Shown here: piece by piece, positions 7,601-62,550 of the stretch
Numbering within the stretch: the first letter of the stretch is position 1
Layout of the letters: each line of letters opens with the position of its first letter
Assembly (NCBI GenBank): GCA_030602345.1
Contig: JAUVZX010000001.1
Location: 131,251 to 195,250, forward strand
Source of the DNA: Bacilli bacterium
Lineage (GTDB): Bacteria > Bacillota_I > Bacilli_A > RF39 > UBA660
Reading direction: 5' to 3'
DNA: 64,000 nucleotides
Notes under the pieces: generated by a model
Told to the model about the DNA's origin: nothing
Database searches by the model: none
What the model saw: the letters and a program-made list of their open reading frames with translations, nothing else
Program-made: the position numbers and the translations under genes

Positions 7601-7960
7601 TTAGTTAACTGTAACTTTATAAACATGTCGATTATTTTCTAAAGTAATCGTAATAAAAGTATCATTAGAAAACCTTTGTTTAGTCTTAGGATTAATTAAT
7701 TCTCGTTTAATATATCCTCCATTTTTTAGTTCTTCTAATGAAACAATATAACTTTGACCATTTATTCTAGGTAAGTTTTCAGGATAATCAACTTCCCAAT
7801 TTTTAACTGCACTTACCATTAATTTAATTTGAACTTCATATGCACTGTCTGCAGAACCTTTAATATAACGATCAATCGATGGAATAACAATCGCCGACAC
7901 TAGTGCTAAAACGACAATAACTGCCAATATTTCCATTAAAGTAAATCCTTTATTTTTCAT
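7601..7960 (-). CDS. Type IV pilin / competence pseudopilin ComGC-like
   Basis: MKNKGFTLMEILAVIVVLALV has a class III signal (G|FTLxE, Glu+5). At 119 aa it is ComGC/major-pilin sized. Confidence 0.75.
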   Translation of the reverse strand: MKNKGFTLMEILAVIVVLALVSAIVIPSIDRYIKGSADSAYEVQIKLMVSAVKNWEVDYPENLPRINGQSYIVSLEELKNGGYIKRELINPKTKQRFSNDTFITITLENNRHVYKVTVN

Positions 7961-10652: not shown

Positions 10653-12488
10653 TTAAAAACCTCCACCAGAACCACCGAAGCCTCCGCCTCCGCCTCCTGA
10701 AGAAAAACCTCCACCAGAACCCGAAGCAGATGCTCTTACAGCATGCTGAGCACTACTAATCGAATTAGTTAAACTAGTTGAAATAGCATGATTAACCATC
10801 ATTGTCGTTCTAAAACGATTAAACTCTGGTCCCATCGAACTATTATTAGGCATTTCTTGAATTCTTACTTTCATTACTTTTTCTAACTTAGTAGCAAGAC
10901 CAAATGCCATAGCATAAACCATATATTTACCCCAAAGTTCGATATGGGGCAATTCTTTCGTTTCAAAAGTACCAAAATCATCAATATAATTTTTTACAGC
11001 ACTCCACTTCAAGAACATCTCATCTCCTAAAGGAGTCACAGGCTTACTATATTTAGACATATATGCATAAAATAATATAGTTACAACAATATTACTTACC
11101 ATCACAATAAGTCCTAGTAATCCCATGAAAGCCCATAAGAATACAACTGCAAATATAGTCAATATTAAAAGGGTATCTGCTGCTCTAATTCTTACAAACT
11201 GTAAAGATGTATATCCTTTTTTAATTGTTTCTTGTTTAGATAATTTCTCCCACTCCGCATATTCTTTCATGAATTTTGAAGGAGATTTCTTTGAATAATC
11301 CACAATTTGTTTCATGGTAACAGTATAATTTGATCCTATTTTAGAAAATAATATTTCAATTAATTTCCTCTCTGGAGCAGTTACACTTTCATATGGAAAA
11401 GCATTTAATCTAAACTCAACATCATTTTTAGTTATCGTACTATAATCAATAAATTTTCTTTCAATCAAATACATTAAAGATGCTGAGAAATAATTAGCAT
11501 TAAATACTCCTGGCATAATATTTCCAATTACTTCTGGACCATCTAAACTTGGAAAATCTCTTAGATATTTATGAGGAAAAACTTTATTTTTTTCTTTTCT
11601 TTCTTTAACATACTTATCAAAAAAATAAATATTAAAAGACGTAAGAATAATCATTCCTATTGTTGCTACTACTCCCAAGCCTTTAGAAAAAGCAATCTCT
11701 TGGTTTCTTCTATTAGCATAAATTTCTTCCACTTCTTTAATCTTAGTATAAGCATCATCTATATTAGTTTTAGTAGTCGCCAAACTAACATCAGAAGGAT
11801 CAATAACTACTCTTGCAGATATACCTCTGTTAGAAGGAACACTACTCATTGTAAAAGTAGCAACATTACCACTTTTACCATATTCTCCTCCAATAGGTCC
11901 TCTTGCAAAAACACCAATTATATCACTTTTAGTATATACTCTAGCTTCAAAATCTCTAACCATTGTATTAAATCCATTTTCATGCAATCTAATATATACT
12001 TCTGCTACATCATTATGGACTCTAACAGCACCAATAACTTTATACTCAAAATAATATGCTCTTAAAGAACCCCCAGAAGGTGAAAACACTCTCATTTCAA
12101 AGTTTTTTCCATCATCAGTAACAGTATATATACCACTATCTCCTGGTATGGCACCATATTCTACATATTGAAAAAAGGAATTAAAACGATCTATTAAATC
12201 ATATCCTAACTCTAAATTTTGATTAGTACTACCTGCTCTTAAAGGAACTATTTTAGTTGGAACATAAGATAAATCATCATCAAATGAGTTATTGTTGAAG
12301 AAAAAAGCTCTATCTAAGTAAGCATCATTCATAAAATAACCATTTTCAGGATTAGCAATTACTACTTTTTTAACAATAATATCGCCATTTTCTAATATTT
12401 CATATTTTTGATATATACCATCTACTCTCATCCCAAAAACAAAAACTGGAAACAAGAATAAAATAACCATAAATATAAGTTTTTTCAT
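10653..12488 (-). CDS. DUF2207 family membrane protein with Gly-rich C-tail
   Basis: Signal peptide MKKLIFMVILFLFPVFVFG starts at 12488 (the ORF-track start at 12590 would overlap LemA). It has a large extracellular domain, TM helices and a C-terminal GSGGGFSSGGGGGGFGGSGGGF tail. Pairing with LemA is typical of this family. Confidence 0.7.
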   Translation of the reverse strand: MKKLIFMVILFLFPVFVFGMRVDGIYQKYEILENGDIIVKKVVIANPENGYFMNDAYLDRAFFFNNNSFDDDLSYVPTKIVPLRAGSTNQNLELGYDLIDRFNSFFQYVEYGAIPGDSGIYTVTDDGKNFEMRVFSPSGGSLRAYYFEYKVIGAVRVHNDVAEVYIRLHENGFNTMVRDFEARVYTKSDIIGVFARGPIGGEYGKSGNVATFTMSSVPSNRGISARVVIDPSDVSLATTKTNIDDAYTKIKEVEEIYANRRNQEIAFSKGLGVVATIGMIILTSFNIYFFDKYVKERKEKNKVFPHKYLRDFPSLDGPEVIGNIMPGVFNANYFSASLMYLIERKFIDYSTITKNDVEFRLNAFPYESVTAPERKLIEILFSKIGSNYTVTMKQIVDYSKKSPSKFMKEYAEWEKLSKQETIKKGYTSLQFVRIRAADTLLILTIFAVVFLWAFMGLLGLIVMVSNIVVTILFYAYMSKYSKPVTPLGDEMFLKWSAVKNYIDDFGTFETKELPHIELWGKYMVYAMAFGLATKLEKVMKVRIQEMPNNSSMGPEFNRFRTTMMVNHAISTSLTNSISSAQHAVRASASGSGGGFSSGGGGGGFGGSGGGF

Positions 12489-12525
12489 AGTTTCTCCTTT
12501 TAAAAAAGACTTATTAAAAATAAGT

Positions 12526-13077
12526 CTAAAATTTAACTTGTGGTGCAACTTTTTCGTTTTCTGTTGCTTCAAAGAAAGGCATATTTTCAAACTTAAACAT
12601 TGAAGCTACAATGTTACTCGGGAAAACTTGCATTAAATTTCTATATTGTAAAACAGCATCATTATAAAATTGTCTTGCATAAGATATTTTATCTTCTGTT
12701 TCTTTTAAATTAGCTTGTAAATCTAAAAAGTTAGTATTTGCTTTTAAATCTGGATAAGCTTCTGCTAAAGCAAATAATCTTCCTAAAGTCGCTGTTAATT
12801 CACCATTTGCTTGCATTTCTGCTTCTGCAGATGGTGCACTTACCACACGATTACGCGCTGTAATAACTGCATCAAATGTTTCTTTTTCATGAGATGCATA
12901 ACCTTTTACTGTTTCTACTAAATTAGGGATTAAGTCAGCACGTCTTTTTAAAAATACGTCTACCTGAGCCCATTGATCTTGTGTCATATTTCTTCTTTGA
13001 ATTAATTTGTTATATGTTGAAGCAACATACATAGCAATTAATCCTACTATTACTAATAAAATTATTAAAAATTCCAT
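12526..13077 (-). CDS. lemA: LemA family protein
   Basis: 183 aa with an N-terminal TM helix and conserved LemA core (…ARQFYNDAVLQYRN…). Confidence 0.85.
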   Translation of the reverse strand: MEFLIILLVIVGLIAMYVASTYNKLIQRRNMTQDQWAQVDVFLKRRADLIPNLVETVKGYASHEKETFDAVITARNRVVSAPSAEAEMQANGELTATLGRLFALAEAYPDLKANTNFLDLQANLKETEDKISYARQFYNDAVLQYRNLMQVFPSNIVASMFKFENMPFFEATENEKVAPQVKF

Positions 13078-13135
13078 ATATCCTCCTAATTAAATACTAT
13101 ATTATTTATTATAAATTGTCAATAAAAACCAAATA

Positions 13136-14971
13136 CTAGAAACCTCCACCTGAGCCTCCAAAGCCACCTTTTCCGCCCCCAGAAGATAACCCACCTCCAG
13201 AACCAGAAGATGAAGCTTTTCTTCCCATGCGTGATGTTCTAATTGAACGACTAACGCTATTAGATAAAGTTTGATTTATTATCATTGTTACTCTTAAATG
13301 ATTTAAGTTGGCCGTTAATAAACTTCTATTTGGTATTTCTTCTATTTTTATGTTCATTGCTCTTTCTAATTTTGTAGCAAGACCAAATGCCGTGGCATAA
13401 ACTATATATTTACCCCAAAGCTCTATTTGAGGCAATTCTTTAGTTTCAAAATTACCAAAATCATCAATATAATTTTTTAAAGCACTCCATTTAAGAGCCG
13501 TCTCATGGCCTAAATCAGTAGTTGGCCTACTATGAATTGTAATATAATAACTTATCATGGCATAGGCTAAAATATTACCCAAAACTAAACCATAACTAAT
13601 AAAATTATAGTAATTAAAACCTAAAGCAGCAATAAACATAATAATAATCACTAAACCATTAAAACTTGATAAAGATGGTTTTCTTTTAGCTAAATACTTC
13701 TTCTGATATGCTTCTTTTCTACTTAATTCTTCCCATAGTTTATATTCCTTAGCAAATTCCTCTTTATTGTTTTTAGAGTATTTTTCAACTTGTTTCATTG
13801 AAACAGTTAAATTGGTCCCTATTTTATAGAAAAATATTTCGATTAATTTTCTTTCTGCTTCAGTTATTTTTTCATAAGGAACTTTATTTAATATAAGCAC
13901 AACATCATTTTTATCTATTTCACTATAACTTGCATATTTTTTTTCAACTAAATTCATTAATGCTGCCGAAAAATAATTACCATTAAATTGACCAGGCATA
14001 ATATGACCTACTACCTCTGGACCATCTAAACTTGGAAAATCCCTTAAATACTTATGAGGAAAAACTTTATTTTTTTCTTTTAATTTTTCTTCAAATTTAA
14101 AATAATAATATATTTGAGACACAATAGATAAAACCAAAGTAAAGTTCACTAACATATTAAAATAATTAAATGCTCTTAACTCTGCATTTCTTTGATCAGC
14201 ATATCCCTTTTCCACCAATACAATTTGTGGATAAGCTTCATCAAAATTTGTTTTTATATTAGCTAAACTAACATCAGAAGGATCAATTACAACTCTTGCA
14301 GAAATACCTGATAAAGCAGGAATATTTCTCATTTTAAAAGTAGCAACATTACCATTTTTATTATAGTCTCCACCAATCGGTCCTCTTCCAAAAACTCCTA
14401 TAATATCACTCTTTGTATAAATTCTTGCTTCAAATTTTCTAACATTATAATTAAATTCACTATCATGCAATCTAATAAATACTTCTGCTACATCATTGTG
14501 GACTCTAACGGCATCATAAACAATATATTCAAAATAATATGCTCTTAAAAATCCATTTGAAGGAGCAAATACATTTATTTCAAAAGTATTTTCCATCATT
14601 AGTACATTAAATTTACCAGTTTCACCTTTTTGAATTAATTCTACAACTCTTTCATAAAATTCATCAAATGAATCAATCAAGTCATAACCAGACATTAAAT
14701 TTTTACTAGTACTACCTGCTCTTATGACTTCGAATCCCGTTGGAGCATAAGCTAGATCATTATCAAAAGAACTCAAAGTAAACACTAGTGGGCTTTTTGA
14801 AATACTATCGTCCATATAATACCCATTTTCAGGATTAGCGATAACTACTTTCTTAACTAAAACATTACCATTTTCAAGTATTTCATATTTTTGATATATG
14901 CTATCTACTCTCATCCCCAAAACAAAAGAAGGTAATAAAAATAATATAATTGTAAACAAAACTTTTTTCAT
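13136..14971 (-). CDS. DUF2207 family membrane protein, paralog 2
   Basis: 611 aa. It has the same architecture as 10653..12488 (signal peptide MKKVLFTIILFLLPSFVLG, conserved blocks RAYYFEY…VRVHNDVAEV…, and a C-terminal SGGGKGGFGGSGGGF tail). Confidence 0.7.
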   Translation of the reverse strand: MKKVLFTIILFLLPSFVLGMRVDSIYQKYEILENGNVLVKKVVIANPENGYYMDDSISKSPLVFTLSSFDNDLAYAPTGFEVIRAGSTSKNLMSGYDLIDSFDEFYERVVELIQKGETGKFNVLMMENTFEINVFAPSNGFLRAYYFEYIVYDAVRVHNDVAEVFIRLHDSEFNYNVRKFEARIYTKSDIIGVFGRGPIGGDYNKNGNVATFKMRNIPALSGISARVVIDPSDVSLANIKTNFDEAYPQIVLVEKGYADQRNAELRAFNYFNMLVNFTLVLSIVSQIYYYFKFEEKLKEKNKVFPHKYLRDFPSLDGPEVVGHIMPGQFNGNYFSAALMNLVEKKYASYSEIDKNDVVLILNKVPYEKITEAERKLIEIFFYKIGTNLTVSMKQVEKYSKNNKEEFAKEYKLWEELSRKEAYQKKYLAKRKPSLSSFNGLVIIIMFIAALGFNYYNFISYGLVLGNILAYAMISYYITIHSRPTTDLGHETALKWSALKNYIDDFGNFETKELPQIELWGKYIVYATAFGLATKLERAMNIKIEEIPNRSLLTANLNHLRVTMIINQTLSNSVSRSIRTSRMGRKASSSGSGGGLSSGGGKGGFGGSGGGF

Positions 14972-15017: not shown

Positions 15018-16517
15018 TTATCTATTAGAAATGGTTAATCTAAATCCCATAGTAGAAGAATCAATACCTGAAGACGAAGTATAACTAAAAATACTTGCTG
15101 TTGACGAAGTAGCAGAACCTCCTCTTTCTAACCAAGGGTTAGATAAATCAACAAAATTAGAAGTTCCACTATACCAACCAGCTGTCTCTGCTAAAGCATG
15201 ACCTGTACAAGGTAAATTAAAACATGCCGTTAAAGGAGATAAAGTTGTGTAATGATTATAATATTTTTCATCAGGGAATGATGAAAAACCTGAGTTACCA
15301 TTAGTTCTTCTATAATTACCCATTACAAACTCACTTACACCACCAGCCATATCATATACTCCATATACATTACCAGTCGTACTTGCTCTTTGACCATTTG
15401 TCGTAGTATATGCGTTAGCACATCCCGCTACTGCAGCAGCTGTAACACTATTTCCTGCACACCCCGTTATATACGTATTACTATTATTTTTCCAAATTTG
15501 AACACCACTACCATATTGACTAGCAGCTAAGTAAGATACTGCACCCCATTCACTATTTTTAGCCATTCTTGCTTCAAAAATTGATTTAGAAATACCAAAC
15601 TCATTATTATCACCTGAAACGACATCTAAGTTAGCAAACAATAATAAAGGTTGAACGCTTCTTAAAGCTGAAATACTAGGCTTAATTCTAAGATTAGTTA
15701 AAGTTCCTCCAGTTTCAAACTTACCAAACCAAAAACCAGTTAACTCACGATTGCCATAAGTAAAGGCAGGATGCGTAATATAAGAAGCTCCCACTCCTGT
15801 CCCAGTCGCTCTTTCATAAAGACCTTCTTCAAAGTTAACGACTATATTATTAACACCTGAAACACCATAATTAAATCTTGGAATCCACACTAAATACATT
15901 AAAATATCAACTTCCCTAACTTCAATACCTAAAGCAGCATCTGACTCATAATATTCTCTTGTTCTAGTACCCACTTCTTTAACTAAAGCAACATTAGCCC
16001 ACATTCTATTAGTATAATCATACCATTTAGCAGAACTAGGATTACGATAATCTGCCTTAACCCATTTAGTACCATCCCATCTAATAGGAATCAATCCCTT
16101 AGATAAAACAGGTTCAGAAGCTAACGAAGTGTCACTATTAAAAACACAAGCCTCTTCCTTAACAATTATTCTTTTCTCATCATATATTTTAGTTGCACAC
16201 CAATCTTTATATTGAATAATAGCAGAAATTCTTCCATCCTCATCCAACTTAACAATTCCTGTACCATTAATCGGAGTCTCTAAATCAATATTAGGCTCTA
16301 TTACACCATTAACAATATTATAAACACGATTTATATTAAAACCACTACTAGCCTTATCCATATCAACTGCCTTAATCAAAGCTGCTACACTATCTTCAAA
16401 AGCTCCCTTTTCAGAACTCTTTAAAACATTACCTATTGTAGGAGCAGTAATCAAACTAACAATTGCAATAATAGCAATAACTGCCAATAACTCAATTAAT
16501 GTAAAACCTTTTTTCAT
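15018..16517 (-). CDS. Modular type IV pilin-like protein with C-terminal FGE-sulfatase (SUMF1-like) domain
   Basis: N-terminus MKKGFTLIELLAVIAIIAIV is a class III signal. The C-terminal 250 aa carry FGE-family motifs (…KNSEWGAVSYLAASQYG…, GVYDMAGGVSEFVMGNY, ERGGSATSS resembling RGGSW). Confidence 0.6.
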   Translation of the reverse strand: MKKGFTLIELLAVIAIIAIVSLITAPTIGNVLKSSEKGAFEDSVAALIKAVDMDKASSGFNINRVYNIVNGVIEPNIDLETPINGTGIVKLDEDGRISAIIQYKDWCATKIYDEKRIIVKEEACVFNSDTSLASEPVLSKGLIPIRWDGTKWVKADYRNPSSAKWYDYTNRMWANVALVKEVGTRTREYYESDAALGIEVREVDILMYLVWIPRFNYGVSGVNNIVVNFEEGLYERATGTGVGASYITHPAFTYGNRELTGFWFGKFETGGTLTNLRIKPSISALRSVQPLLLFANLDVVSGDNNEFGISKSIFEARMAKNSEWGAVSYLAASQYGSGVQIWKNNSNTYITGCAGNSVTAAAVAGCANAYTTTNGQRASTTGNVYGVYDMAGGVSEFVMGNYRRTNGNSGFSSFPDEKYYNHYTTLSPLTACFNLPCTGHALAETAGWYSGTSNFVDLSNPWLERGGSATSSTASIFSYTSSSGIDSSTMGFRLTISNR

Positions 16518-16564
16518 ATAATCACCTACTTTAATTATAACACAAAAAAAGGATTAAAATAATC

Positions 16565-17590
16565 CTAAAATGTTTGCCAACCTCCTGCAGTAAAGTAACT
16601 TGGTGCCCCAGAGTTATTTATCCACACTCTATTTATAATTTCATCCATTTGTTCTTTTGTTGGTTCATTTCCTGTACCAAATGCTTCTGTTAAATTCATG
16701 AACATAACCGCCTTAACTGTTGCATAAGCATTTCCGTTCAAATAAGCACCGGCATGCGAAAAATTAAGTTGAATCCTGAATGAAGTTGCTGTAGAAGCTC
16801 TAGAGTCACTCGCATTTACTACATAAGAGTTCTTACCAATTAAAATGTTGTCGCCACCATACGAAACGTATGTTGGATGAACAGAAGACAATTGAAAAGT
16901 AGGAGTGTAAATATTATGACCTTCTAAAAAATCAATATTAACATAGTATCTATTATTAAGTATGGGCAAAACACTAAAATTATATATCAATCTAAACGTA
17001 CTGTGTACGTCACCACTATATAATCTTTGATATCGATTACTAGTTATTACTTCGGATAGCAAAGTATTTTCACGTCCCCAACCGGTAGCCAATATATCAT
17101 TACCTGCACTAAAATCACCATTGATTACTAAATTATTAAATGGTGCGTTTACTTGTGAATAATATATATTACTTACACATTCACTCTCGCTCATCTTACT
17201 TACTACTATCTCTTCGCTACTTCTATCCTTAACTGAACAATGGACTCCATCATATAAAGCTAACTTTATACTTCCGTCTTCAAATATATGAATTCCTCCT
17301 GATTTAGGATTATTTCCATTAAAGACTATGTCTTTATCATTAGGATATACTGTTTTATCACCTTCATTAAATAATACAAATATTGGTACATTTCCATTTC
17401 CTGTCTTATCTAATACATATAAGTTTTCACTAGCCTTAATTAATCCTTGTGTTGATGATCTAAAACTTCTTTCTTGTGCTGTTTCTATCATATTAAGTGC
17501 ATTTGGCACTGTAATTAATGCAATGATTGCTAGTACTACCATTACTACTAATAATTCTATTAATGTAAATCCTTTTTTCTTCTTTTTCAT
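16565..17590 (-). CDS. Pilin-like surface protein, variable paralog A
   Basis: MKKKKKGFTLIELLVVMVVLAIIALITVPNAL is a class III signal. The first ~150 aa and the last ~35 aa are conserved with the two neighbouring paralogs, and the centre is divergent. Confidence 0.65.
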   Translation of the reverse strand: MKKKKKGFTLIELLVVMVVLAIIALITVPNALNMIETAQERSFRSSTQGLIKASENLYVLDKTGNGNVPIFVLFNEGDKTVYPNDKDIVFNGNNPKSGGIHIFEDGSIKLALYDGVHCSVKDRSSEEIVVSKMSESECVSNIYYSQVNAPFNNLVINGDFSAGNDILATGWGRENTLLSEVITSNRYQRLYSGDVHSTFRLIYNFSVLPILNNRYYVNIDFLEGHNIYTPTFQLSSVHPTYVSYGGDNILIGKNSYVVNASDSRASTATSFRIQLNFSHAGAYLNGNAYATVKAVMFMNLTEAFGTGNEPTKEQMDEIINRVWINNSGAPSYFTAGGWQTF

Positions 17591-17641
17591 ATACCCCTAC
17601 CTTATTAAAAGTATAACAAAAAAAGAATTGTTATTCAATTC

Positions 17642-18562
17642 TTAAAATGTTTTCCATCCTCCTGCGGTAAAGTAATTTGGTATACCTAAATTATTTATCC
17701 ACACTCTGTCTAATTGCCCTTCACTAGGATTGATCCACCCCTCTAAAATGATTACATTTGCTAACATATTACCCTGAACCGAAATGTTTGTTTGCAACCA
17801 TATACTACCTAAAGAATCCGAAGGTAATGGATTTTGAGCTACCGCTTGTGCATAATATAGTCCTGTTGCCCCCGTATTTATTGTAACTTGAGGTATTAAT
17901 AAATCAAACCTAGAATCAGTTCTTAATATCGCCGGCATATTAAAATTGTTTTCTAGAATATCTAAAATAACTGTGTACTCCCCTCCTGCAATTGGTCTCC
18001 ACTGAAATCTATTTAATATCCTATCCCAAACTCCACCATTAAAGCGAATGTTTTCACCAACTTTTGAAGAATTAGAAAAAACCATTGTACTATGATTATA
18101 TAAATTATTAAAAGGTGCACTTACTTGTGAATAGTATATATTACTTATACATTCACTATCACTCATCTTACTTAGTATTATATCTTCACTACTTCTATTT
18201 TTAACTGAACAATATACTCCATCATATAATGCCAACTTTATACTTCCATCTTCAAATATGTGGATTCCTCCTGATTTGGGATTACTTCCACTAAATATGA
18301 TATCTCTATCATTTGGATATACTGTTTTTTCTCCTTCATTAAATAATACAAATACTGGTACGTTTCCATTTCCTGTCTTATCTAATACATATAAGTTTTC
18401 ACTAGCTTTAATCAATCCCTTTGTTGATGATCTAAAACTTCTTTCTTGAGCTGTTTCTATCATATTAAGTGCATTGGGCACTGTGATTAATGCTATTATT
18501 GCTAGTACTACCATTACTACTAATAACTCTATTAATGTAAATCCTTTTTTCTTCTTTTTCAT
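17642..18562 (-). CDS. Pilin-like surface protein, variable paralog B
   Basis: Same N-terminus as paralog A, nearly identical at the nucleotide level, with the conserved C-terminal …RVWINNLGIPNYFTAGGWKTF. Confidence 0.65.
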   Translation of the reverse strand: MKKKKKGFTLIELLVVMVVLAIIALITVPNALNMIETAQERSFRSSTKGLIKASENLYVLDKTGNGNVPVFVLFNEGEKTVYPNDRDIIFSGSNPKSGGIHIFEDGSIKLALYDGVYCSVKNRSSEDIILSKMSDSECISNIYYSQVSAPFNNLYNHSTMVFSNSSKVGENIRFNGGVWDRILNRFQWRPIAGGEYTVILDILENNFNMPAILRTDSRFDLLIPQVTINTGATGLYYAQAVAQNPLPSDSLGSIWLQTNISVQGNMLANVIILEGWINPSEGQLDRVWINNLGIPNYFTAGGWKTF

Positions 18563-18613
18563 ATACCCCTACCTTATTAAAAGTATAACAAAAAAAGGAT
18601 TGCTATTCAATCC

Positions 18614-19594
18614 TTAGAATGTTTTCCAACCTCCTGCAGTAAAGTAATGTACTACTCCAGAACCATTGATCCATACTCTATTTATGATTTCATCCATCTC
18701 TTCTTTTGTTGGTTCATTACCTGCTCCATATAAAGATGTTAAATCAAGCGTTATAGCTTTTTTTATTTCCATTATTTTCCCGTTCGCTTCAGATGCACTT
18801 GAATAAGATTGAACAATTATATTATAAGATGATACAGTTGCAGTCGCCGTTCTATTGGTAGAAAATACATACCATTTGCCAATTATAGAATTATATACGT
18901 TTACATCACTATTTGTAACATTAAATGATCTTTGTCTTAAAAAATCCGGGTTTCCATTAATTATTCTTGCTTCCCAATTATAATAATATACATTATTTAA
19001 TACGATATTTATAGATCTTCCAACGTATGATTGATTCCCAACTCCATTACCAGTAAGTCTTAAGACTCTCCCAACTACTTCTTGAGTAGAGTTACTTGCA
19101 ATCCACCCAGATGTTCCATTACTAAAGTCTCCATTGGTTATCAAATTATTAAATGGTGCACTTGTTTGTTCATAATATATATTTGATAAACAAATATTCT
19201 CACTTATCTTACTTATTGTTATTTCTTCGCTTGTTCTATTCTTTATTGAACAATATGTTCCATCATATAAAGCTAGTTTTATACTTCCGTCTTCAAATAT
19301 ATGGATTCCTCCTGATTCAGGATTACTTCCATTAAACATGATGTCTTTAGTATTTGGATATACTGTTTTTATTCCATTTTCAAACAAGATAAAGACTGGT
19401 ACATTTCCATTTCCTGTCTTATCTAATACATATAGGTTTTCACTAGCCTTAATTAATCCTTGTGTTGATGATCTAAAACTTCTTTCTTGAGCTGTTTCTA
19501 TCATATTAAGTGCATTTGGCACTGTAATTAATGCTATTATCGCTAGCACTACCATTACTACTAATAACTCTATTAATGTAAATCCCTTTTTCAT
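18614..19594 (-). CDS. Pilin-like surface protein, variable paralog C
   Basis: Same N-terminal 150 aa block and C-terminal …RVWINGSGVVHYFTAGGWKTF, with a divergent centre. Confidence 0.65.
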   Translation of the reverse strand: MKKGFTLIELLVVMVVLAIIALITVPNALNMIETAQERSFRSSTQGLIKASENLYVLDKTGNGNVPVFILFENGIKTVYPNTKDIMFNGSNPESGGIHIFEDGSIKLALYDGTYCSIKNRTSEEITISKISENICLSNIYYEQTSAPFNNLITNGDFSNGTSGWIASNSTQEVVGRVLRLTGNGVGNQSYVGRSINIVLNNVYYYNWEARIINGNPDFLRQRSFNVTNSDVNVYNSIIGKWYVFSTNRTATATVSSYNIIVQSYSSASEANGKIMEIKKAITLDLTSLYGAGNEPTKEEMDEIINRVWINGSGVVHYFTAGGWKTF

Positions 19595-26779: not shown

Positions 26780-27088
26780 CTATCTATTGATGGTTGAAGC
26801 TACACATGTATCAGTATCAAAAACTACTGAAACAAAAGAATAATTTCCTTTGTAATCTAAATCTGCAGCAACTACTGGACTAGTAACTGTTGCGCCTGGA
26901 CTTAAAGTTTTTTGTTCTAAACAATAAACTTCTGCAGCTCTTCTAATTCCATCTTCTGATCTAGCATCTGCTCTTTCTTGTGCAGTTGTAATCATCGCAA
27001 GTGCATTTGGTACTGTAATTAACGCAATGATTGCTAATATAACGATAACTACTAATAATTCTATTAGTGTAAATCCTTTTTTATTCAT
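26780..27088 (-). CDS. Type IV major pilin-like protein (ComGC-sized), paralog 1
   Basis: MNKKGFTLIELLVVIVILAIIALITVPNALAMI is a class III signal. 102 aa. Confidence 0.75.
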   Translation of the reverse strand: MNKKGFTLIELLVVIVILAIIALITVPNALAMITTAQERADARSEDGIRRAAEVYCLEQKTLSPGATVTSPVVAADLDYKGNYSFVSVVFDTDTCVASTINR

Positions 27089-27117
27089 ATTATATTTTCT
27101 CCTTTATTTTTTTGAGT

Positions 27118-27459
27118 TTATGGCATTGTTGTTAATGCTGTCGCTGTACATGAAGCATTAAACGAAAAACCAACTACAGGAAAACCATCAGCAGTTTTCA
27201 ATGTTGTACCGGTTTTAATTAGAGTCCCTAATCCTGCAACAGTAACTGGCCCTGGAGTAGCGAAGGTTGCTGATCCTGTTTTTTCTCTCATACAATAAAC
27301 TTCTGCAGCTCTTAATGCACCTTCTAATGATCTAGCATCTGCTCTTTCTTGAGAAGTTGCAATCATTGCTAATGCATTAGGCACTGTGATTAATGCGATG
27401 ATTGCTAAAATAACGATAACAACCAATAATTCGATTAATGTGAAACCTTTTTTGTTCAT
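27118..27459 (-). CDS. Type IV major pilin-like protein, paralog 2
   Basis: Same conserved N-terminal ~55 aa and a divergent C-terminal half. 113 aa. Confidence 0.75.
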   Translation of the reverse strand: MNKKGFTLIELLVVIVILAIIALITVPNALAMIATSQERADARSLEGALRAAEVYCMREKTGSATFATPGPVTVAGLGTLIKTGTTLKTADGFPVVGFSFNASCTATALTTMP

Positions 27460-27595
27460 TTTTTTCCCTATCCTTTCTATGTTTTAAATATATCATTTTA
27501 GGGGGTGCTAGTCAAGAGTAATTTTGTAAAAGTATGGGCAAAAAACGGATAGGCATTATAATATAAGGTTTATATTTATGTAAACTTTTTTTGTT

Positions 27596-27922
27596 TTATT
27601 CTGGTATTACGAAATTAGGTGCACATGTATCTTGATTGAATTCTATATGGTCTTGTCCATCAAGATGATCTGGTACTGCTTTTATAAAATTAGGAACTAA
27701 ATTGTTCATGCTTACTGCGATAATCGGTGCGGTACCTTTTAGTTTTTCAGTCATGCAATATAATTCCGCGGCTCTTAAGATTCCGTCTTCAGATCTTGCA
27801 TTTGCTCTTTCTTGAGCTGTTGCAATCATTGCTAATGCATTTGGTACTGTGATAAGAGCTATGATTGCCAATATAACGATAACTACTAGTAATTCTATTA
27901 GCGTAAATCCTTTGTTTTTCAT
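27596..27922 (-). CDS. Type IV major pilin-like protein, paralog 3
   Basis: MKNKGFTLIELLVVIVILAIIALITVPNALAMIATAQER. 108 aa with a divergent C-terminus. Confidence 0.75.
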   Translation of the reverse strand: MKNKGFTLIELLVVIVILAIIALITVPNALAMIATAQERANARSEDGILRAAELYCMTEKLKGTAPIIAVSMNNLVPNFIKAVPDHLDGQDHIEFNQDTCAPNFVIPE

Positions 27923-37638: not shown

Positions 37639-38484
37639 TTATTCCTCCATCATATTATCAACATAAGCGTTTAGATCAAATGCCCTTAAATCTTCTTTAT
37701 CTTCACCTAGACCAATCAACTTAGGGAATAAATTTACTTTTTCTTTGATAGAAAAAATAATTCCTCCCTTAGCAGTACCATCTAACTTAGTCATCACTAT
37801 TCCTGTTAATTTAACTACTTCATTAAAGTATTCTGCTTGAAATAAAGCATTTTGACCTTGAGTAGCATCTATTACTAATAGTGTTTCTTCTGGATATTTA
37901 TTTAAAACTTTATAAATAGTACGATTCATCTTATCCATTTCTTGCATAAGCGGTTCTTTATTTTGAAGTCTTCCTGCGGTGTCGATGAAAACTAATTCAA
38001 AGTTATTGCTTTTAGCGTATTCTAATCCTTCATATATAACAGCAGAAGGATCAGACACATCTTTAGCAAAAACTTCTATATTAAGCTCTTCTCCCCATTT
38101 TTTAAGTTGTTCTTTAGCACCTGCCCTAAATGTATCTGCAGCAATTAATAAAGTCTTTTTATGGGAATATTGATTAGCCAATTTAGCAATAGTTGTAGTT
38201 TTACCAACTCCATTTATTCCAACAAAAAGATATACCGTTAAGCCTTCACTAAAGTTCAATCGATTATGATAAGGATCATAATCTTTATATAAATATTTAA
38301 TTGAATCTTTTAAATTTAATTTATTTTTTTTCATAACACTAATTATTTTATTAGTTACTTCATATGAAACATCAAAACTAATTAAAGACTCTTCTAAATT
38401 TTCATAATAATCTTCACTAGAATCTAACTTTACTTTAAAGAAATCTTTAGCTTTAGATAAGCCTTTTTTATAAGCTTCAAACAT
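37639..38484 (-). CDS. ftsY: Signal recognition particle receptor FtsY (short form)
   Basis: NG domain only (GINGVGKTTTIAKLA, DTAGR, TKLDGTAKGG), with no acidic A-domain. Confidence 0.85.
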   Translation of the reverse strand: MFEAYKKGLSKAKDFFKVKLDSSEDYYENLEESLISFDVSYEVTNKIISVMKKNKLNLKDSIKYLYKDYDPYHNRLNFSEGLTVYLFVGINGVGKTTTIAKLANQYSHKKTLLIAADTFRAGAKEQLKKWGEELNIEVFAKDVSDPSAVIYEGLEYAKSNNFELVFIDTAGRLQNKEPLMQEMDKMNRTIYKVLNKYPEETLLVIDATQGQNALFQAEYFNEVVKLTGIVMTKLDGTAKGGIIFSIKEKVNLFPKLIGLGEDKEDLRAFDLNAYVDNMMEE

Positions 38485-40289
38485 TATAATTCTCCTTTTA
38501 TTTTTGAATAAAAATCTTTTTCTAATATTAATTTAGATATATTAAAATCATTTTCGATTCTAATTTTAATATCTTCATCTATTATATCATTATTAAGACT
38601 ATTATACCTAGTATTAGGAGTAATATAACTACGATTGGCAAATATAACTAAAGGATCTTCTACACTTAAAATATCAGTACCAATTAACAATCTCGAATCA
38701 TATTCTACTCCAAATAAATTTAACATAGTAGGTAAAATATCGATTGAAGAAGCTAAGGTTTTATTCTCTTCTTTTATATAAGGATTATATATCATAAAAA
38801 TATTTTTATGCATTTCAAAATATTTATCTTTTTCATAGCTAGATAATTCATTTATCTCATCTAAGGTAAGACCATATGGATAATGATCACTACTTAAAAT
38901 AATAATAGTGTCATCTAATTTATTAGCTTCTTTTAAAGAATCAATTAAATATCCAATCGCCTTATCTAATTCTATATTTGCCGCTAAATAGCCTTTAGCT
39001 CTTTCTGACAAACTCAAATCTTTCACTAAAGGATAGTTTTGCCTCACGATTGAATTACCTGAAGTTGTATAATTTAAATGCCCTGAGACTGTTATATAAT
39101 AAGTCATAAACTTATCATCATTAATATAATCACCAACAGAAGCTTGCATCATCTCTAAATCCGAAGCAGGCCATCTATTACAATTGATATCAAGTAAATT
39201 ATAATAGCGACAAGCCTTATAAGAATCATAGCCTAAAGCATCAATAAATAGATGTCGATCATAATATTTACCTGAATGATTATGGTAAGCAAATGTATTA
39301 TAATCTTTATCTTTAAATATATTTGCATAACTAAAGGGTAAATAATTTTTGTTTATATCTTTGATACTGAAAGTTCCTTCTTTTGGATATAATGATAATT
39401 TAGACATATATTCTCCATCCGCAGTACTAACAGGATACAAAGGAGTATAAAAGTTAGTAAAAACTAAACTATTATCATAAAAATGCTTTAAATTTGGAGT
39501 TACTTCGCTAATTGCATATTCCGTAAATGACTCTGCTATAATAACTATTAAATTTTTACCTTCAAAAAGACCAGTATATTCATTTTTTAAAGAAGGGGTC
39601 TTATTTTTAAAGTAGTTATACATCATAATTAAATCAGCATCTGTTTCTTCTTCGATTAATTTATCAAAATCAATTTCCAAAACATTATAATCTTTCTCTA
39701 AATCTATTTCATTATCATCGATAACTAACTCTATTTTCAAAGGAAATAATTGATTTCTAAAGCTAATGATATAGTGATGCAATAATCCATAGTTTTTAAC
39801 CATTTCAATTGAAGAAATATTTTTAAAATAATTAGTAGACATAAAAGAAGTAATAACTAATATAACTAAAAATATTAAAGAATATTTAAGTTTAAAACTG
39901 TTCTTAAAATAATTGTATTTATTTAAAATAATATATACAACAAAAGGAATAATCATTAATAATATTATCAATAAATTATTCTTAATAACTAATACTATTT
40001 GATCAAAAAATTCTAAGACTTGAGCACCTTCTTTAGCATTATTAAAACTAAAAAATGAAGCATATACTTTATAATAAATAAAATTACTTAAATATAGTAA
40101 TAAAGTAAATAATGATAACCCATAAAATAATAGTTTCTTTTTATAAAGCAACATTAAAAATGCAGCATATACTAATGAAAAAAAGACAGCAAAAAGAAAG
40201 TTAAAACTCTTTACAGTAAATAAAGAAAAAATAACTTCTAAGAAAGTTAAACTAAATACTAAATATATATATAATTCTATCTTCTTCAT
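38484..40289 (-). CDS. LTA synthase family protein (LtaS-like sulfatase-fold membrane protein)
   Basis: Five N-terminal TM helices and an extracellular sulfatase/alkaline-phosphatase-like domain. 601 aa. Confidence 0.7.
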   Translation of the reverse strand: MKKIELYIYLVFSLTFLEVIFSLFTVKSFNFLFAVFFSLVYAAFLMLLYKKKLLFYGLSLFTLLLYLSNFIYYKVYASFFSFNNAKEGAQVLEFFDQIVLVIKNNLLIILLMIIPFVVYIILNKYNYFKNSFKLKYSLIFLVILVITSFMSTNYFKNISSIEMVKNYGLLHHYIISFRNQLFPLKIELVIDDNEIDLEKDYNVLEIDFDKLIEEETDADLIMMYNYFKNKTPSLKNEYTGLFEGKNLIVIIAESFTEYAISEVTPNLKHFYDNSLVFTNFYTPLYPVSTADGEYMSKLSLYPKEGTFSIKDINKNYLPFSYANIFKDKDYNTFAYHNHSGKYYDRHLFIDALGYDSYKACRYYNLLDINCNRWPASDLEMMQASVGDYINDDKFMTYYITVSGHLNYTTSGNSIVRQNYPLVKDLSLSERAKGYLAANIELDKAIGYLIDSLKEANKLDDTIIILSSDHYPYGLTLDEINELSSYEKDKYFEMHKNIFMIYNPYIKEENKTLASSIDILPTMLNLFGVEYDSRLLIGTDILSVEDPLVIFANRSYITPNTRYNSLNNDIIDEDIKIRIENDFNISKLILEKDFYSKIKGEL

Positions 40290-51779: not shown

Positions 51780-53975
51780 CTATTCTTCATCATCACTAAA
51801 GAAATCATCAAAGAATTGATCATCCGTTATTTTGAATGGCTTTTTCTCTGGTATAACTTTATCTTCTACCTTAATCGGTGTTTCTATTTTTGGTTCTACT
51901 CTAATATCTCTAGCTAAATCAACCATTTTTGTTTCCTTCAACGGTGTTCCTGATACCTCAAACTCATTTGGAACAATAAATTTAGGTTTAACTTCTTCCA
52001 CAACTGTTTTTTCTTCTATCATTGGCTCTGGAGCAACAAATTTTCTTTCTTCCATTATTGGTCTATCCTCAATGATTGATTGAGTGATAGTTTCAGGTTG
52101 TTGGAAAACAGTTCCACCATTTTCTTCCTCAGCCTCTTCGGCTGCTGCTATTCTAGCATCAATTCTTTTCATAATTGCATCTATATCAATTCCTGAGTCA
52201 AATGATGACATTGAATCAGCCTGACTATCAAAGAAGTTAGGAGCACCAAATGGTTTTTCCTTAGGTTTAGATTGATTTCTATTATCGACAAATTCTTTCA
52301 AATTAAATAATTTAAGAGGTCTAATTTCCCTTGGAGTAAACTCTGCTTTAGGGTATTTTTTACCCCAATTCATTTTATAATTAAATTCTAATTTAGTTTT
52401 AAATGGAGCTTTTCTAGTTCTTAAGATAACTGCCTCTCCCATTTTTAATTGTTGTAAATCACTTACAGTAATTAAAGGCGTTGAAGCTGTTTTATCTTTT
52501 TCTTTAGATTTCTTTTCTCCAGCCATTTTACTTATTTCTTCTAAAGCTGAAAGTTCACTACTAATTAAGTAAACTATGTTACCACAGTTACCCTTAATAG
52601 TTTCTCCATTTTCTTTACCATAAACTTGATAAAGCTGTGAATAGTTTTGAATAATAAATGTCATTCTAATCAATCTAGAACGAGCTGCTGTAACCATTGT
52701 AGTAACATCCTTTAAAGGAGGCATATTTGCAAACTCATCTAAAATGAAGTTAGTACGATATTTTAATTTACCATCTGGATTTTCTTGAGCAACATCGATT
52801 AACGATTCATAACATTGTTTAATAAATGTTGTAACTAAAGGATGGAGTGTTTTCTTCTCATCTTGCACAATCAAGAAAACTGCTGTTTTTTGTCTTCCAA
52901 TTCCCTTCATATTAATGTCATTATATGCTAACATTTCTGAAATATTTTCTCTTGCTGCAAATAATTTGATCTTTTGATAGAAAACAGCAAATATACTATT
53001 TTTAGTTTCCGCTGCTGCAACCAAAACACTCGCTAAGTTAACATAAGCGGGACTAGATGGATCTTTAGTTGAAAAATACTCTTTCAAGTAAGTTCCACTT
53101 CTAAATCTTTCTTCTCCTAAAGCACTCATTAAATTAATACTATTAATATTTATTTGTTCTTCAGTAGCATCTTCGAATAACGCTAATGCTAATCCAACAA
53201 AGTAATTAGCTGCTGTTTTTTCCCAGAAATCATCTGCTTTATTTTTTTCATCATATAAGATATTAATGGCTAAATCATCTAAAAGTTCAATTGCTTTGTC
53301 CTTATCACCACTTTTATATAATTCATAAGGAAGAATCAATGGATTCCATGCGGAACCTTTTTGTGGCTCACGAAAGTTTAGAACAATAACATTATATCCT
53401 CTTTTTCTAAGTTCAACAGCATTATCGCGGTAAATTTCACCTTTAGGATCGGTGATAATCATTGATTCCCCTTTCTTAGCTAAAAGCTTAACTAAAGGCA
53501 AAACGACTAATTGAGTTTTACCACTACCAGTAGAACCGATGACTAAGTTATGATATTCACCATTGTCTACCCATAACTCTTTACCATCATTAATAAGAGG
53601 AATTCCCGCTGCAGTTGTAACTTCTTCAGAGGGCAAAACTCTTGATAATTCTTTCTTCATATCTTTGTTTTTAGAAAAAGTGTTATATCCACCTTTATCT
53701 TTTTTACCAAAAGTGAATCCAAATCCTTCTTCCATTTCGAAAAACATAGACGATCCTTGAGTAAGAATCAATCCTAAAGAAAGTAAATAAAGAGATATAG
53801 TTGGCCATATAAATTCATCTGTAAAAACTTTTAATGGATTAAATCCATGAAGCGTTGTATCGCTAGCAAATTGAAATAAATTCAACACAACTAACGACAC
53901 TAAATAAAACATTACAATCAATAGAATTATAAATGCCCATAAATGTTTAGCCTCTGCCTTAATTCTTAATTTCAT
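51780..53975 (-). CDS. Type IV secretion coupling protein (VirD4/TraG/TraD family T4CP)
   Basis: Two N-terminal TM helices, Walker A VIGSTGSGKTQ and TraG-family blocks (…ITDPKGE…, …FILDEFAN…). Extended acidic C-terminal tail. Confidence 0.85.
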   Translation of the reverse strand: MKLRIKAEAKHLWAFIILLIVMFYLVSLVVLNLFQFASDTTLHGFNPLKVFTDEFIWPTISLYLLSLGLILTQGSSMFFEMEEGFGFTFGKKDKGGYNTFSKNKDMKKELSRVLPSEEVTTAAGIPLINDGKELWVDNGEYHNLVIGSTGSGKTQLVVLPLVKLLAKKGESMIITDPKGEIYRDNAVELRKRGYNVIVLNFREPQKGSAWNPLILPYELYKSGDKDKAIELLDDLAINILYDEKNKADDFWEKTAANYFVGLALALFEDATEEQININSINLMSALGEERFRSGTYLKEYFSTKDPSSPAYVNLASVLVAAAETKNSIFAVFYQKIKLFAARENISEMLAYNDINMKGIGRQKTAVFLIVQDEKKTLHPLVTTFIKQCYESLIDVAQENPDGKLKYRTNFILDEFANMPPLKDVTTMVTAARSRLIRMTFIIQNYSQLYQVYGKENGETIKGNCGNIVYLISSELSALEEISKMAGEKKSKEKDKTASTPLITVSDLQQLKMGEAVILRTRKAPFKTKLEFNYKMNWGKKYPKAEFTPREIRPLKLFNLKEFVDNRNQSKPKEKPFGAPNFFDSQADSMSSFDSGIDIDAIMKRIDARIAAAEEAEEENGGTVFQQPETITQSIIEDRPIMEERKFVAPEPMIEEKTVVEEVKPKFIVPNEFEVSGTPLKETKMVDLARDIRVEPKIETPIKVEDKVIPEKKPFKITDDQFFDDFFSDDEE

Positions 53976-53983
53976 ATGACCTC

Positions 53984-54634
53984 CTATATAAATTTTTTAT
54001 TCTTTTGTTTTATTGTTAAATATATACCAACAATCAATAACATTATTGGTCCGAAAACTAATGCTAATACAACCATAAAGTTATCAAAAATTGAAGTACT
54101 TGCACTAGCACTAGTTAAATCAAGTTCAAAACTAATTGGTTTATTATTACTTAATTTCAATTCCCATATATGAACATTATTATCACTTTTATCAGCATTA
54201 CTATTTTCTATTTCAAATGGTGACTTAATAATTAGTTTTAAATTATCTACTTCACCAAAACACTCGAAGTTACCATTAGTGTTGAATATTACCTTATCAT
54301 CTTTCTTTTCAATAGTTGTTTTACTATAACAACTAGTAACAAATGGAGTCCAAGCTAAATATTCATCATAACTAGATTTATTATTAAATTTTAATCCTGA
54401 TAAAGTATCACCTATAACTTTTTCTTTAGAATATACATACATCGGATTAGTTATCTCATCATTCATCCAAATTATAAATTGGAGTTCTGATTCTAAATCT
54501 TCGCCGATTAATTCATTTTCCTCTAAAACAGTTATATTTTCATCGATAAAATTACCATCAATAGTTACTTCATAAGTAACGCTACATCCAGTCAAAAGAA
54601 ACATAAACATTAAAATTAGTAGTTTCTTTACCAT
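53984..54634 (-). CDS. Conjugation-associated lipoprotein, hypothetical
   Basis: Lipobox LLTGC (MVKKLLILMFMFLLTGCSV) and a C-terminal TM helix, translationally coupled between the hydrolase and the T4CP. Confidence 0.5.
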   Translation of the reverse strand: MVKKLLILMFMFLLTGCSVTYEVTIDGNFIDENITVLEENELIGEDLESELQFIIWMNDEITNPMYVYSKEKVIGDTLSGLKFNNKSSYDEYLAWTPFVTSCYSKTTIEKKDDKVIFNTNGNFECFGEVDNLKLIIKSPFEIENSNADKSDNNVHIWELKLSNNKPISFELDLTSASASTSIFDNFMVVLALVFGPIMLLIVGIYLTIKQKNKKFI

Positions 54635-56202: not shown

Positions 56203-56223
56203 AAAATCACGTCCTTATTTCTT

Positions 56224-58014: not shown

Positions 58015-58543
58015 TCACCGTCCCAAATCTAGTTTCCATTCCTCCATTTAAGAAGTTTTCCAAGACGATTCTCATATCTTCATTAGTTGTTTGATATGCT
58101 GTCATATTAGCCCCAGCAAACGCCCCAATTAAGTCACGAATCTTTTTCTTAGCCTTTTCAGGATCTTTTTCTTTAAATAATAAATAGTATTCGGTATCAA
58201 CTACATTATTATTTGTAAATTGATTAGCTTTTTCAATATCTTGAACAATTAGTTTTCTCCTTGATAATGAACCAGCATTGTTATATAAGGCTTGTAATTC
58301 AGATAAATATACGTTTATATCAACAGGTCTATCTGCTACTACTAACCAAAATTCATAATCAATTTGATTATAAACATTCTTTAGATTATTAATCATCATT
58401 TGTTCTGTAGAAGAATCTAAGATAAAAATGTTTTTAGGCATAATTTTTATACCTGCAACTTTATAATTATTATCTAAAATAATCATTCCCTCTCTAATAT
58501 CTTTAACCGGAACAAACATACTTGTATTATTCTTCGAAGCCAT
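57998..58543 (-). CDS. VirB4-family N-terminal domain encoded as a separate 181 aa ORF (split gene or frameshift)
   Basis: …FVPVKDIREGMIILDNNYKVAGIKIMPKNIFILDSSTEQ… matches the N-terminal domain of Gram-positive VirB4-like proteins (Orf16/PrgJ/TcpF type). It overlaps the 596 aa ORF by 17 nt in another frame. 181+596 aa approximates a full-length VirB4. Confidence 0.55.
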   Translation of the reverse strand: MASKNNTSMFVPVKDIREGMIILDNNYKVAGIKIMPKNIFILDSSTEQMMINNLKNVYNQIDYEFWLVVADRPVDINVYLSELQALYNNAGSLSRRKLIVQDIEKANQFTNNNVVDTEYYLLFKEKDPEKAKKKIRDLIGAFAGANMTAYQTTNEDMRIVLENFLNGGMETRFGTVIANGY

Positions 58544-58844
58544 CTTTATAATCCCAACCTTTCCAATAATAATTTTGATTATCTATAAAGTAAAACTTAA
58601 ATATTGTTTTAATTATATGAAGCACATTATGATAATTAGGAATAGGCATAACTAATAGTCCTGTGATTGCTCCAGGTGCTAATGCTATTACTGTAAACAG
58701 TAGTTTCTCCATCGGAAGAGCTAAAACTCCAACGAATGAAAAGAAAACTCCTACTCCAAATATTATCAAATCTATTTCTCTAAATGCTCCAAAAATCAAT
58801 AATGATCTTTTTGAGTTGGCCGGTATTAAAAATTGTCTATCCAT
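58527..58844 (-). CDS. Small two-TM membrane protein (VirB3/ConD-like position)
   Basis: 105 aa with two hydrophobic helices. It lies immediately upstream of, and overlaps, the VirB4 N-terminal ORF, the typical position of VirB3. Confidence 0.35.
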   Translation of the reverse strand: MDRQFLIPANSKRSLLIFGAFREIDLIIFGVGVFFSFVGVLALPMEKLLFTVIALAPGAITGLLVMPIPNYHNVLHIIKTIFKFYFIDNQNYYWKGWDYKDGFEE

Positions 58845-58875
58845 TTTTTTACCACCTTTTATTCTTTCTTTTTAG

Positions 58876-62449: not shown

Positions 62450-62480
62450 TATAATTTCAACCTCTTATTTCTAAATACAA

Positions 62481-62495: not shown

Positions 62496-62550
62496 AACAC
62501 AAAAAAAAGCGATAATAAACAAGTTTATATCACTTTAGCTTTTATTTATA

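Follow-up and report, generated by a model that had tools for sequence, protein, structure and literature searches.

A modular type IV pilin with an FGE-type C-type-lectin module, probably displayed as a pilus-tip adhesin, in an uncultured gut Bacilli bacterium

Can a type IV prepilin of a gut bacterium carry a domain of the formylglycine-generating enzyme (FGE) fold, and would such a domain act on a filament as an enzyme or as a binding module? This question is raised by one gene in a 64-kb stretch of a Bacilli genome, with the whole stretch (28.9% GC) referred to here as the window. The gene encodes a well-modelled modular type IV pilin whose effector is an FGE-subtype C-type lectin (CLec) of the lineage of variable proteins of diversity-generating retroelements (DGRs). 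Taken alone, this is a moderate result, a plausible pilus-tip adhesin of a pilin-rich gut bacterium. The link between DGRs and type IV pilins in two relatives, L022 and L061, is a more novel lead than the window gene itself.

A complete gene for a modular prepilin

A single ORF of 499 aa fills positions 15018 to 16517 of the minus strand, complete to its TAA stop at 15018 to 15020 according to the ORF listing and translation, while the plus-strand frame of the same interval has many stops. A sequence-only reading of this DNA had placed a 499-aa protein here, correctly as to the ORF but overlooking that it lies on the minus strand. All of the peptides quoted in that reading (MKKGFTLIELLAVIAIIAIV, DWCATK, EEACVFN, SEWGAVSYLAASQYG, GVYDMAGGVSEFVMGNY, and ERGGSATSS) occur in the translation. 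The gene is real and conserved, with a 100% identical NCBI protein (P0001) and 1,576 matches in a first protein search.

Signals resembling consensus elements were read in the upstream intergenic region (16522 to 16566, minus strand). The preceding pilin gene closes with a hairpin (AGGATT-ATTTT-AATCCT, 16566 to 16550) and a T-run, a candidate extended −10 element, by consensus resemblance only (TGTTATAAT, TGnTATAAT-like), lies at 16542 to 16534, and a candidate ribosome-binding site, again only by resemblance (AGGTGA), lies at 16527 to 16522. An overall promoter scan found no excess over shuffles. Hairpins with T-runs occur on both flanks of the window gene.

The N terminus of the protein, MKKG/FTLIE (the slash marks the cleavage site), is a canonical prepilin signal, as the sequence-only reading had proposed. 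Both Pfam N_methyl (28.3 bits versus a cutoff of 21.2, E=1e-6) and NCBIfam TIGR02532 (32.8 bits versus a cutoff of 16.3) match residues 2 to 24 above their curated cutoffs. The features of a class III signal are present, namely, a short basic leader ending in Gly, Phe at +1, Glu at +5, and about 20 hydrophobic residues. According to the N_methyl and TIGR02532 matches, the predicted leader peptide M1-K2-K3-G4 (16506 to 16517, minus strand) would be cleaved by a prepilin peptidase after Gly4, at the slash in MKKG/FTLIELLAVIAIIAIVSLI (also written MKKG/FTLIELLAVIAIIAIV).

An AlphaFold2 model based on an alignment of 31 sequences (A1) had a pLDDT of 89.3 and a pTM of 0.84. In this model, supported by the profile match, the mature protein begins with α1 (residues 5 to 58; 16344 to 16505, minus strand), a hydrophobic helix for assembly and membrane anchoring that is modelled as 52 helical residues (7 to 58). 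When the A1 profile was compared to the PDB, it matched the α1 helices of Streptococcus sanguinis PilE1 (8pfb, E=9e-10), the best match for the N terminus, and of other pilins. Residues 59 to 127 (16137 to 16343, minus strand) form a small β-sheet head containing Cys107 and Cys124, in agreement with the two-Cys pilin head noticed earlier. The result is the architecture of a pilin, with a long α1 helix packed against an antiparallel β-sheet head.

Beyond the head, a linker and a small β subdomain (residues 128 to 204; 15906 to 16136, minus strand) are conserved at P136, W165-Y166-x-Y168, and W173-A-N175, columns that are invariant both in A1 and in A2, a profile of the module alone. The remainder, residues 205 to 499 (15021 to 15905, minus strand), is modelled as an FGE-subtype CLec domain with the motifs VWIPRF, HPAF...GFWFGKFE, NSEWGAVSYL, STTGNVYGVYDMAGG, and RGG...GFR. 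Because alignment to homologs that have no pilin begins near residue 130, the portable module comprises about 365 residues (about 136 to 499). The FGE-fold module proposed from sequence was therefore borne out as to fold but begins near residue 136 rather than 230, and is about 365 rather than about 250 residues long.

With its genuine class III signal, pilin head with two Cys residues, and FGE-fold domain at the C terminus, this protein is a modular pilin. In the sense of Raynaud et al. (2021), it consists of a pilin module (residues 1 to 127) followed by a CLec module (about 136 to 499), the latter of which is also found in hundreds of proteins that lack a pilin carrier.

Genomic setting and site of display

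At least 10 prepilin genes, several of them modular, are scattered among housekeeping genes in the window. They comprise the gene described here, a prepilin gene at 7601 to 7960, three tandem prepilin paralogs with near-identical carriers and differing C-terminal modules (16565 to 19594), three ComGC-sized pilins that are candidate major pilins (26780 to 27922), a pilin with a Laminin_G_3 domain (28016 to 28966), and a pilin with a CE2_N domain (30311 to 32581). The carrier of the window protein is paralogous to the carriers of its neighbors (34% identity, E=7e-17), so the locus seems to combine a single carrier design with exchanged effector modules. Neighboring pilins with the same carrier type bear other binding-type modules, such as Laminin_G_3 and CE2_N.

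We consider the window protein to be probably a modular minor type IV pilin that displays a noncatalytic FGE-type CLec ligand-binding module at the filament tip. In this scheme, a prepilin peptidase encoded elsewhere would cleave after Gly4, and the α1 helix plus the two-Cys head (residues 5 to 127) would be the carrier, the part built into a type IV filament. Residues 136 to 499 or thereabouts, the 365-residue module, would be the effector, and a position at the tip would follow from its being too bulky for the filament body. Modular pilins form a tip-located adhesive complex in S. sanguinis, where PilB carries a vWA module and PilC a lectin module (PMC8179133, PMC9934059). By analogy, the window protein, once incorporated into a filament, would sit at its tip, and an adhesin at the pilus tip of this uncultured gut bacterium is the most likely identity of the protein.

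A different explanation, which we judge unlikely, is that the protein is a cell-surface receptor whose class III signal does no more than provide a cleavable anchor in the membrane or a short pseudopilus stub, leaving the CLec module at the cell surface in the manner of the sugar-binding proteins of the archaeal "bindosome" or of T2SS pseudopilins. Such a receptor would fit the finding of no assembly machinery in the window or beside any of about 90 family genes. Pfam identified no pilus or Com assembly gene (ATPase, platform, or prepilin peptidase) among about 55 window ORFs, and two crude regex scans for a T2SSE-type ATPase motif were negative for the window and for 1.35 Mb of flanks from 85 homolog loci. 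These negatives are the weakest point of the filament reading. Family genes are also scattered singly among housekeeping genes, and cellular DGR targets are mostly membrane-anchored binding proteins (Roux et al. 2021, PMC8144416). Arguing against a receptor, Glu+5, Phe+1, and the complete pilin head are kept across the family in A1, and the ten prepilin genes of the window, three of them ComGC-sized candidate major pilins, imply a filament system. In addition, a membrane-tethered 50-kDa protein would need to span the cell wall, which is present in this organism because it encodes PBPs and FtsW/RodA.

Fold and function of the C-terminal module

On sequence evidence, assignment of the module to the FGE family is borderline. 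The Pfam FGE-sulfatase profile (PF03781, which we take to be the same as InterPro IPR005532) matches residues 317 to 409 with 23.0 bits, just below the gathering threshold of 23.3 (E=7e-5). This match is partial (profile positions 111 to 195 of 255), and 8 of the 31 aligned homologs match at an E value of ≤0.01. The Pfam comparison suggested in the sequence-only reading thus gave a near miss, yet the AlphaFold2 model nonetheless shows an FGE-type CLec fold.

Structural searches with the model agree on its closest relative. Foldseek against the PDB ranked TaqVP, a DGR variable protein from Thermus aquaticus, first (E=3e-9) and PorK second. In pairwise fold comparison, TaqVP scored 20.6 (229 residues, root mean square deviation of 2.8 Å), followed by PvdO (13.3), TvpA (12.8), CarF (12.4), CalU17 (11.4), PorK (11.4), pFGE (11.2), OvoA (10.8), Mtd (10.6), and EgtB (10.5), with type IV pilins at 5 to 7.3. 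The A2 profile found exactly one match among PDB sequences, also TaqVP (E=2e-4). When compared to viral models, the module matched tail-fiber and receptor-binding proteins of phages, as well as a phage protein labeled "SUMF-like domain." An FGE-subtype CLec fold in the window protein is confirmed at the level of the predicted structure, and the closest relatives of the module are ligand-binding DGR variable proteins (TaqVP and TvpA), not enzymes. Fold and topology are as in TaqVP, and the variable region (VR) of relatives maps to the extreme C terminus.

This position is informative because of what lies there in the human enzyme. The catalytic Ser333, Cys336, and Cys341 of hFGE fall within a segment that corresponds in structure to the C-terminal DGR variable region (PMC6328139). 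The corresponding residues of the window protein, about 455 to 499, read FVDLSNPWLERGGSATSSTASIFSYTSSSGIDSSTMGFRLTISNR and lack cysteine altogether, which makes an enzyme much less likely than a binding module. A PDB search with the window protein found no FGE as a sequence match, returning only CarF (E=0.11); mapping of the catalytic site is therefore based on the TaqVP paper and on the RGG...GFR framing. Within this segment, residues 455 to 492 (15042 to 15155, minus strand), Ser/Thr-rich and Cys-free, form a putative ligand-binding surface, as the equivalent both of the VR of relatives and of the hFGE catalytic segment.

Other routes to catalysis were weighed in the same way. In EgtB and OvoA sulfoxide synthases, the FGE-like domain is preceded by a DinB-like domain at the N terminus that contains a 3-His iron site. 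In the window protein, Pfam finds no DinB-like domain, and the pilin and β subdomain precede the CLec domain. Two Cys pairs, C353/C366 and C431/C436, are conserved in A1 but are missing from many family members, such as P0057 and P0115, and for this reason are probably structural disulfides of an extracellular protein. The only "sulfatase"-family gene of the window (38484 to 40289), which we take to be LtaS-like, has an architecture without need for an FGE.

The sequence-only reading had left it open whether the domain was an enzyme or a binding module. With a Cys-free catalytic-equivalent segment, no DinB-like domain, and nonenzymatic binders (TaqVP and TvpA) as nearest relatives by a wide margin, an FGE-, EgtB-, or PvdO-like metalloenzyme displayed on a type IV filament is very unlikely, and we rejected it in favor of a binder. 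The module would then be a noncatalytic ligand-binding domain of the same lineage as TaqVP and TvpA, presenting its last 45 or so residues as a binding surface. Its ligand could plausibly be a glycan or a protein on gut host, food-particle, or microbial surfaces.

Carriers and hosts of the module

An exhaustive phmmer search of 1.84 billion representative sequences with the module returned 3,368 clusters at an E value of ≤1e-3, 2,345 at ≤1e-10, and 740 at ≤1e-30. Most often it lies at the C terminus, with 2 to 6 copies in some giant proteins, and it sits behind several display carriers. A canonical prepilin motif was found at the N terminus of 74 of the 120 top matches and 42 of 139 further representatives. 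Other recurrent N termini also occur. For example, some carry an "NKGFAISG..." leader without Glu5, and others have hydrophobic signals ending in ...GTSYAW or YAMF that resemble the SipW/TasA type, for which one protein gave a weak match to TIGR04088 (16.3 bits versus a cutoff of 19).

Hosts of the family are uncultured gut Bacilli with 23 to 30% GC (annotated as "Bacilli bacterium," "Tenericutes," "Candidatus Onthousia," and "Candidatus Pelethosoma"), frequently with several copies per genome. Only 3 relatives of the module were found among 2.9 million viral contigs, indicating a cellular family; this scarcity and a syntenic position among housekeeping genes led us to reject a phage origin for the window gene.

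DGR cassettes in related loci

Because the closest relatives of the module are DGR targets, 80 related loci from species-representative genomes were self-compared for VR/TR pairs. Such pairs were present in L022, L053, L059, L061, and L067 and in less clean form in L042, L049, and L051. In these relatives, the last ~110 to 155 nt of the homologous gene is repeated 0.2 to 1.9 kb downstream, the VRs being the last ~45 to 50 codons. Mismatches between the two copies fall almost entirely at adenines of the downstream copy, for example, all 17 in L053 and 20 of 21 in L067. Translated, the TRs read ...RGGNYNN..NAGVFNFNN..NSNNSFR..., their variable sites being AAY codons, and bAvd and RVT_1 genes follow them. 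A DGR-type RT was located within 10 kb at 10 loci, plus one weak match.

Two of the confirmed targets are prepilins. The L022 protein begins ...NKAFTLIELL (N_methyl, E=7e-6), and the L061 protein begins MKKGFTLAELIG (TIGR02532, 16.4 bits versus a cutoff of 16.3). Homologs in metagenome-assembled genomes of related gut Bacilli thus carry genuine DGR cassettes, and two of these homologs are clearly fused to a pilin. A GC-rich 3' end of the kind that marks a VR is seen in six further pilin-fused genes (L006, L014, L032, L050, L065, and L068). Of these, L050 has an adjoining RT and is a probable DGR target, with no TR found within the flank searched. That the family is a DGR scaffold had been overlooked when the locus was read from sequence.

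A fixed copy in the window

The window copy itself is static and vertically inherited. No TR-like repeat of its 3' end occurs in the 64-kb window, tblastn with the RT and Avd of relatives found neither in the window, and no RVT_1 or bAvd match was obtained with Pfam among the scanned window ORFs. Composition points the same way. True VRs in equally AT-rich relatives have 50 to 58% GC compared to 30 to 33% for the rest of the gene, whereas the last 150 nt of the window gene have 32.7% GC and the whole gene has 33.9%, leaving no compositional signature of a VR. Its VR-equivalent codons include TCG, TCA, ACA, and GCA, with no NNY restriction, and its 3' end is AT-rich, with no GC-rich, IMH-like end.

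A strain variant from another sample (P0121, 99% identical) differs at 5 residues, none of them in 455 to 499. Orthologs with ~50% identity (P0008 and P0011) occupy the same chromosomal neighborhood (pilin-CLec, LemA, DUF2207, TrmB, ... YtxH, small pilin, ... GGDEF) and have no DGR. Orthologs diverge most in the VR-equivalent segment (38% identity versus 52 to 67% elsewhere), as would be expected if a binding surface changed through ordinary mutation.

One could still propose that a cassette at another site in the genome acts on the window gene in trans and diversifies it, since the relatives of the gene are bona fide DGR targets, DGRs can have remote targets, and the window shows 64 kb of a contig that is at least 221 kb long, but the lack of a TR-like repeat, RT, and Avd in the window, the 33% GC, absent NNY pattern, and absent IMH-like end of the last 150 nt, the unchanged residues 455 to 499 of P0121, and the syntenic DGR-free orthologs at ~50% identity make this highly improbable. 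With repeat, RT/Avd, GC and codon signature, and strain variation all negative, action of a DGR on this gene was rejected. The window pilin carries a module of fixed, vertically inherited sequence; in related Bacilli, the same scaffold, again on pilin carriers, is targeted by DGRs for hypermutation.

Relation to known systems

Modular pilins are an established and highly varied class, for which Raynaud et al. (2021, PMC8179133) counted 264 architectures and over 1,200 proteins. Dataset S1 of that study lists the combination IPR012902-IPR005532 (N_methyl plus a SUMF domain) with 8 proteins (PMC8179133), the same two-domain architecture as the window protein, as a table line without a described structure, function, or DGR link. 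The sequence-only reading had known of no described pilin with an FGE domain and had spoken of a new class of modular pilin; with 264 architectures known and N_methyl-SUMF already catalogued, that claim was overstated and does not stand.

The best functional parallels are PilB (vWA) and PilC (Ig plus a ConA-like lectin) of S. sanguinis, which share with the window protein a monoderm host, a class III signal, a small pilin moiety, and a bulky C-terminal module, and for which a position at the pilus tip and a role in adhesion have been proposed (PMC8179133, PMC9934059). The window protein differs in that its effector has an FGE-type CLec fold and its gene lies outside any pil machinery locus. 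The closest structural parallels, TaqVP (PDB 5VF4, T. aquaticus) and TvpA (2Y3C, Treponema denticola), are stand-alone proteins, TvpA being a lipoprotein, and each is diversified through its own cognate TR and RT. In contrast, the window protein has no TR, RT, or VR signature and adds a type IV pilin carrier and an extra subdomain of ~70 residues. Noncatalytic FGE folds are also found in PvdO (a periplasmic pyoverdine maturation factor), pFGE/SUMF2 (an endoplasmic reticulum protein), and PorK/GldK (a T9SS ring lipoprotein), but none of these has a pilin carrier, and the window protein is far closer to TaqVP.

For the diversified relatives, the nearest precedent is the type V pilus adhesins of Bacteroides. 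There, a gut bacterium uses a DGR to hypermutate the adhesive component of a pilus tip (bioRxiv 10.1101/2024.11.15.621889), a concept that L022 and L061 would share. These are type V (FimA-like) pili of Bacteroidota, however, not type IV pilins of Bacillota, and they are diversified whereas the window gene is not. Type IV pili, Firmicutes, and Bacilli go unmentioned in the Bacteroides study (bioRxiv 10.1101/2024.11.15.621889), as do pili in Roux et al. (2021, PMC8144416). A 2024 survey names a "GspG-type pilin" domain, at table level, among rare domains that hold VRs (PMC11661182). Literature on DGR-targeted type IV pilins yielded no relevant co-mention within incomplete coverage, so an earlier description is possible.

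Whether the family amounts to a previously undescribed system is, in our estimate, evenly balanced. In such a system, uncultured low-GC gut Bacilli would display TaqVP-like CLec modules at the tips of type IV filaments, with DGRs reprogramming the module in some lineages and the window gene representing a version of fixed specificity. The reprogrammed lineages would be L022 and L061 and probably also L050, L006, L014, L032, L065, and L068, and, if this is true, they would encode "hypervariable type IV pilus adhesins." Retroelement-driven diversification of adhesins, so far seen in phage tail fibers and recently in Bacteroides type V pili, would then also cover type IV filaments in Bacillota. 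For the study of ligand specificity, natural pairs of static and diversified orthologous scaffolds are available in the family.

With the majority of its members scoring under the Pfam/InterPro threshold, the family far exceeds the 8 catalogued proteins, and domain databases greatly undercount the pilin-CLec architecture.

Prepilin genes around the pilin-CLec gene

Immediately upstream of the gene for the prepilin bearing the C-type-lectin (CLec) module lies a tandem trio of prepilin paralogs, all on the minus strand (16565 to 17590, 17642 to 18562, and 18614 to 19594). These proteins are nearly identical over their first ~150 residues and diverge in their C-terminal modules, and the prepilin motif N_methyl was the sole Pfam match in each. 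The modules open with NGDFSxGxxGW, a start that may resemble CBM4/9-type jelly rolls, and the C-terminal tail RVWINNxGxPxYFTAGGWxTF is common to all three paralogs. Each gene in the trio is also preceded by the same hairpin and a TG-extended −10-like motif.

Two additional modular pilins are encoded in the window. The first (28016 to 28966) bears a Laminin_G_3 module, of the ConA-like lectin type, and the second (30311 to 32581) is a 756-aa protein with a CE2_N carbohydrate-esterase-type beta-sandwich module, indicating that this genome possesses an entire set of binding modules mounted on pilins. Candidates for the major pilins are three adjacent ComGC-sized prepilins of 102 to 113 aa with near-identical N termini (26780 to 27088, 27118 to 27459, and 27596 to 27922). 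A fourth short prepilin, of 119 aa (7601 to 7960), retains its synteny in the orthologous contigs L081 and L082.

Several proteins share a leader, M(K)xNNKGFAISGILY..., that looks like a class III signal except that Glu5 is missing. Within the window, this leader begins a Gly_rich_2/Ig-like protein (33371 to 34705), and elsewhere it is found on proteins with the same CLec module (locus L039, 4427 to 5881, and homologs P0133, P0135, P0138, P0140, P0167, P0181, and P0185). Its bearers may be minor pilins of the cap type, which are GspK-like and Glu5-less.

Other neighboring genes

Directly downstream of the pilin-CLec gene are DUF2207, LemA, and DUF2207 genes (10653 to 14971), with both DUF2207 proteins ending in the Gly-rich tail SGGGxGGFGGSGGGF. 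LemA/DUF2207 genes also adjoin the pilin-CLec gene in orthologs at ~50% identity (L081, L082, and L083). Farther away, a 601-aa "Sulfatase" (PF00884) family protein (38484 to 40289) is, by its size and matches, probably a lipoteichoic acid synthase of the LtaS type and not a sulfatase that depends on formylglycine, and therefore lends no support to a nearby FGE substrate.

Positions 51780 to 63967 form a conjugative-element-like block. Large ORFs at 58876 to 62449 had no Pfam match; other genes encode a VirD4/TraG-type coupling protein (51780 to 53975), an M23 peptidase (54628 to 56202), and a VirB4/TraG-like ATPase (56224 to 58014).

Homologs in related genomes

Homologs of the window gene are targets of complete diversity-generating retroelement (DGR) cassettes in MAGs of related gut Bacilli, the cassettes consisting of target variable region (VR), template repeat (TR), bAvd, and reverse transcriptase. 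They occur in L022 (376 to 4469) and L061 (7184 to 11298), where the DGR target is a prepilin, and also in L053, L059, L067, L049, L042, and L051, with several TR-like copies in L049 and L059. The VRs of these relatives' targets are islands of 50 to 58% GC in host genomes of 23 to 29% GC.

The CLec module also occurs in 2 to 6 tandem copies in giant proteins (P0130, 4,516 aa; P0131, 3,713 aa; and P0018/P0020), showing that it serves multivalent surface proteins as well.
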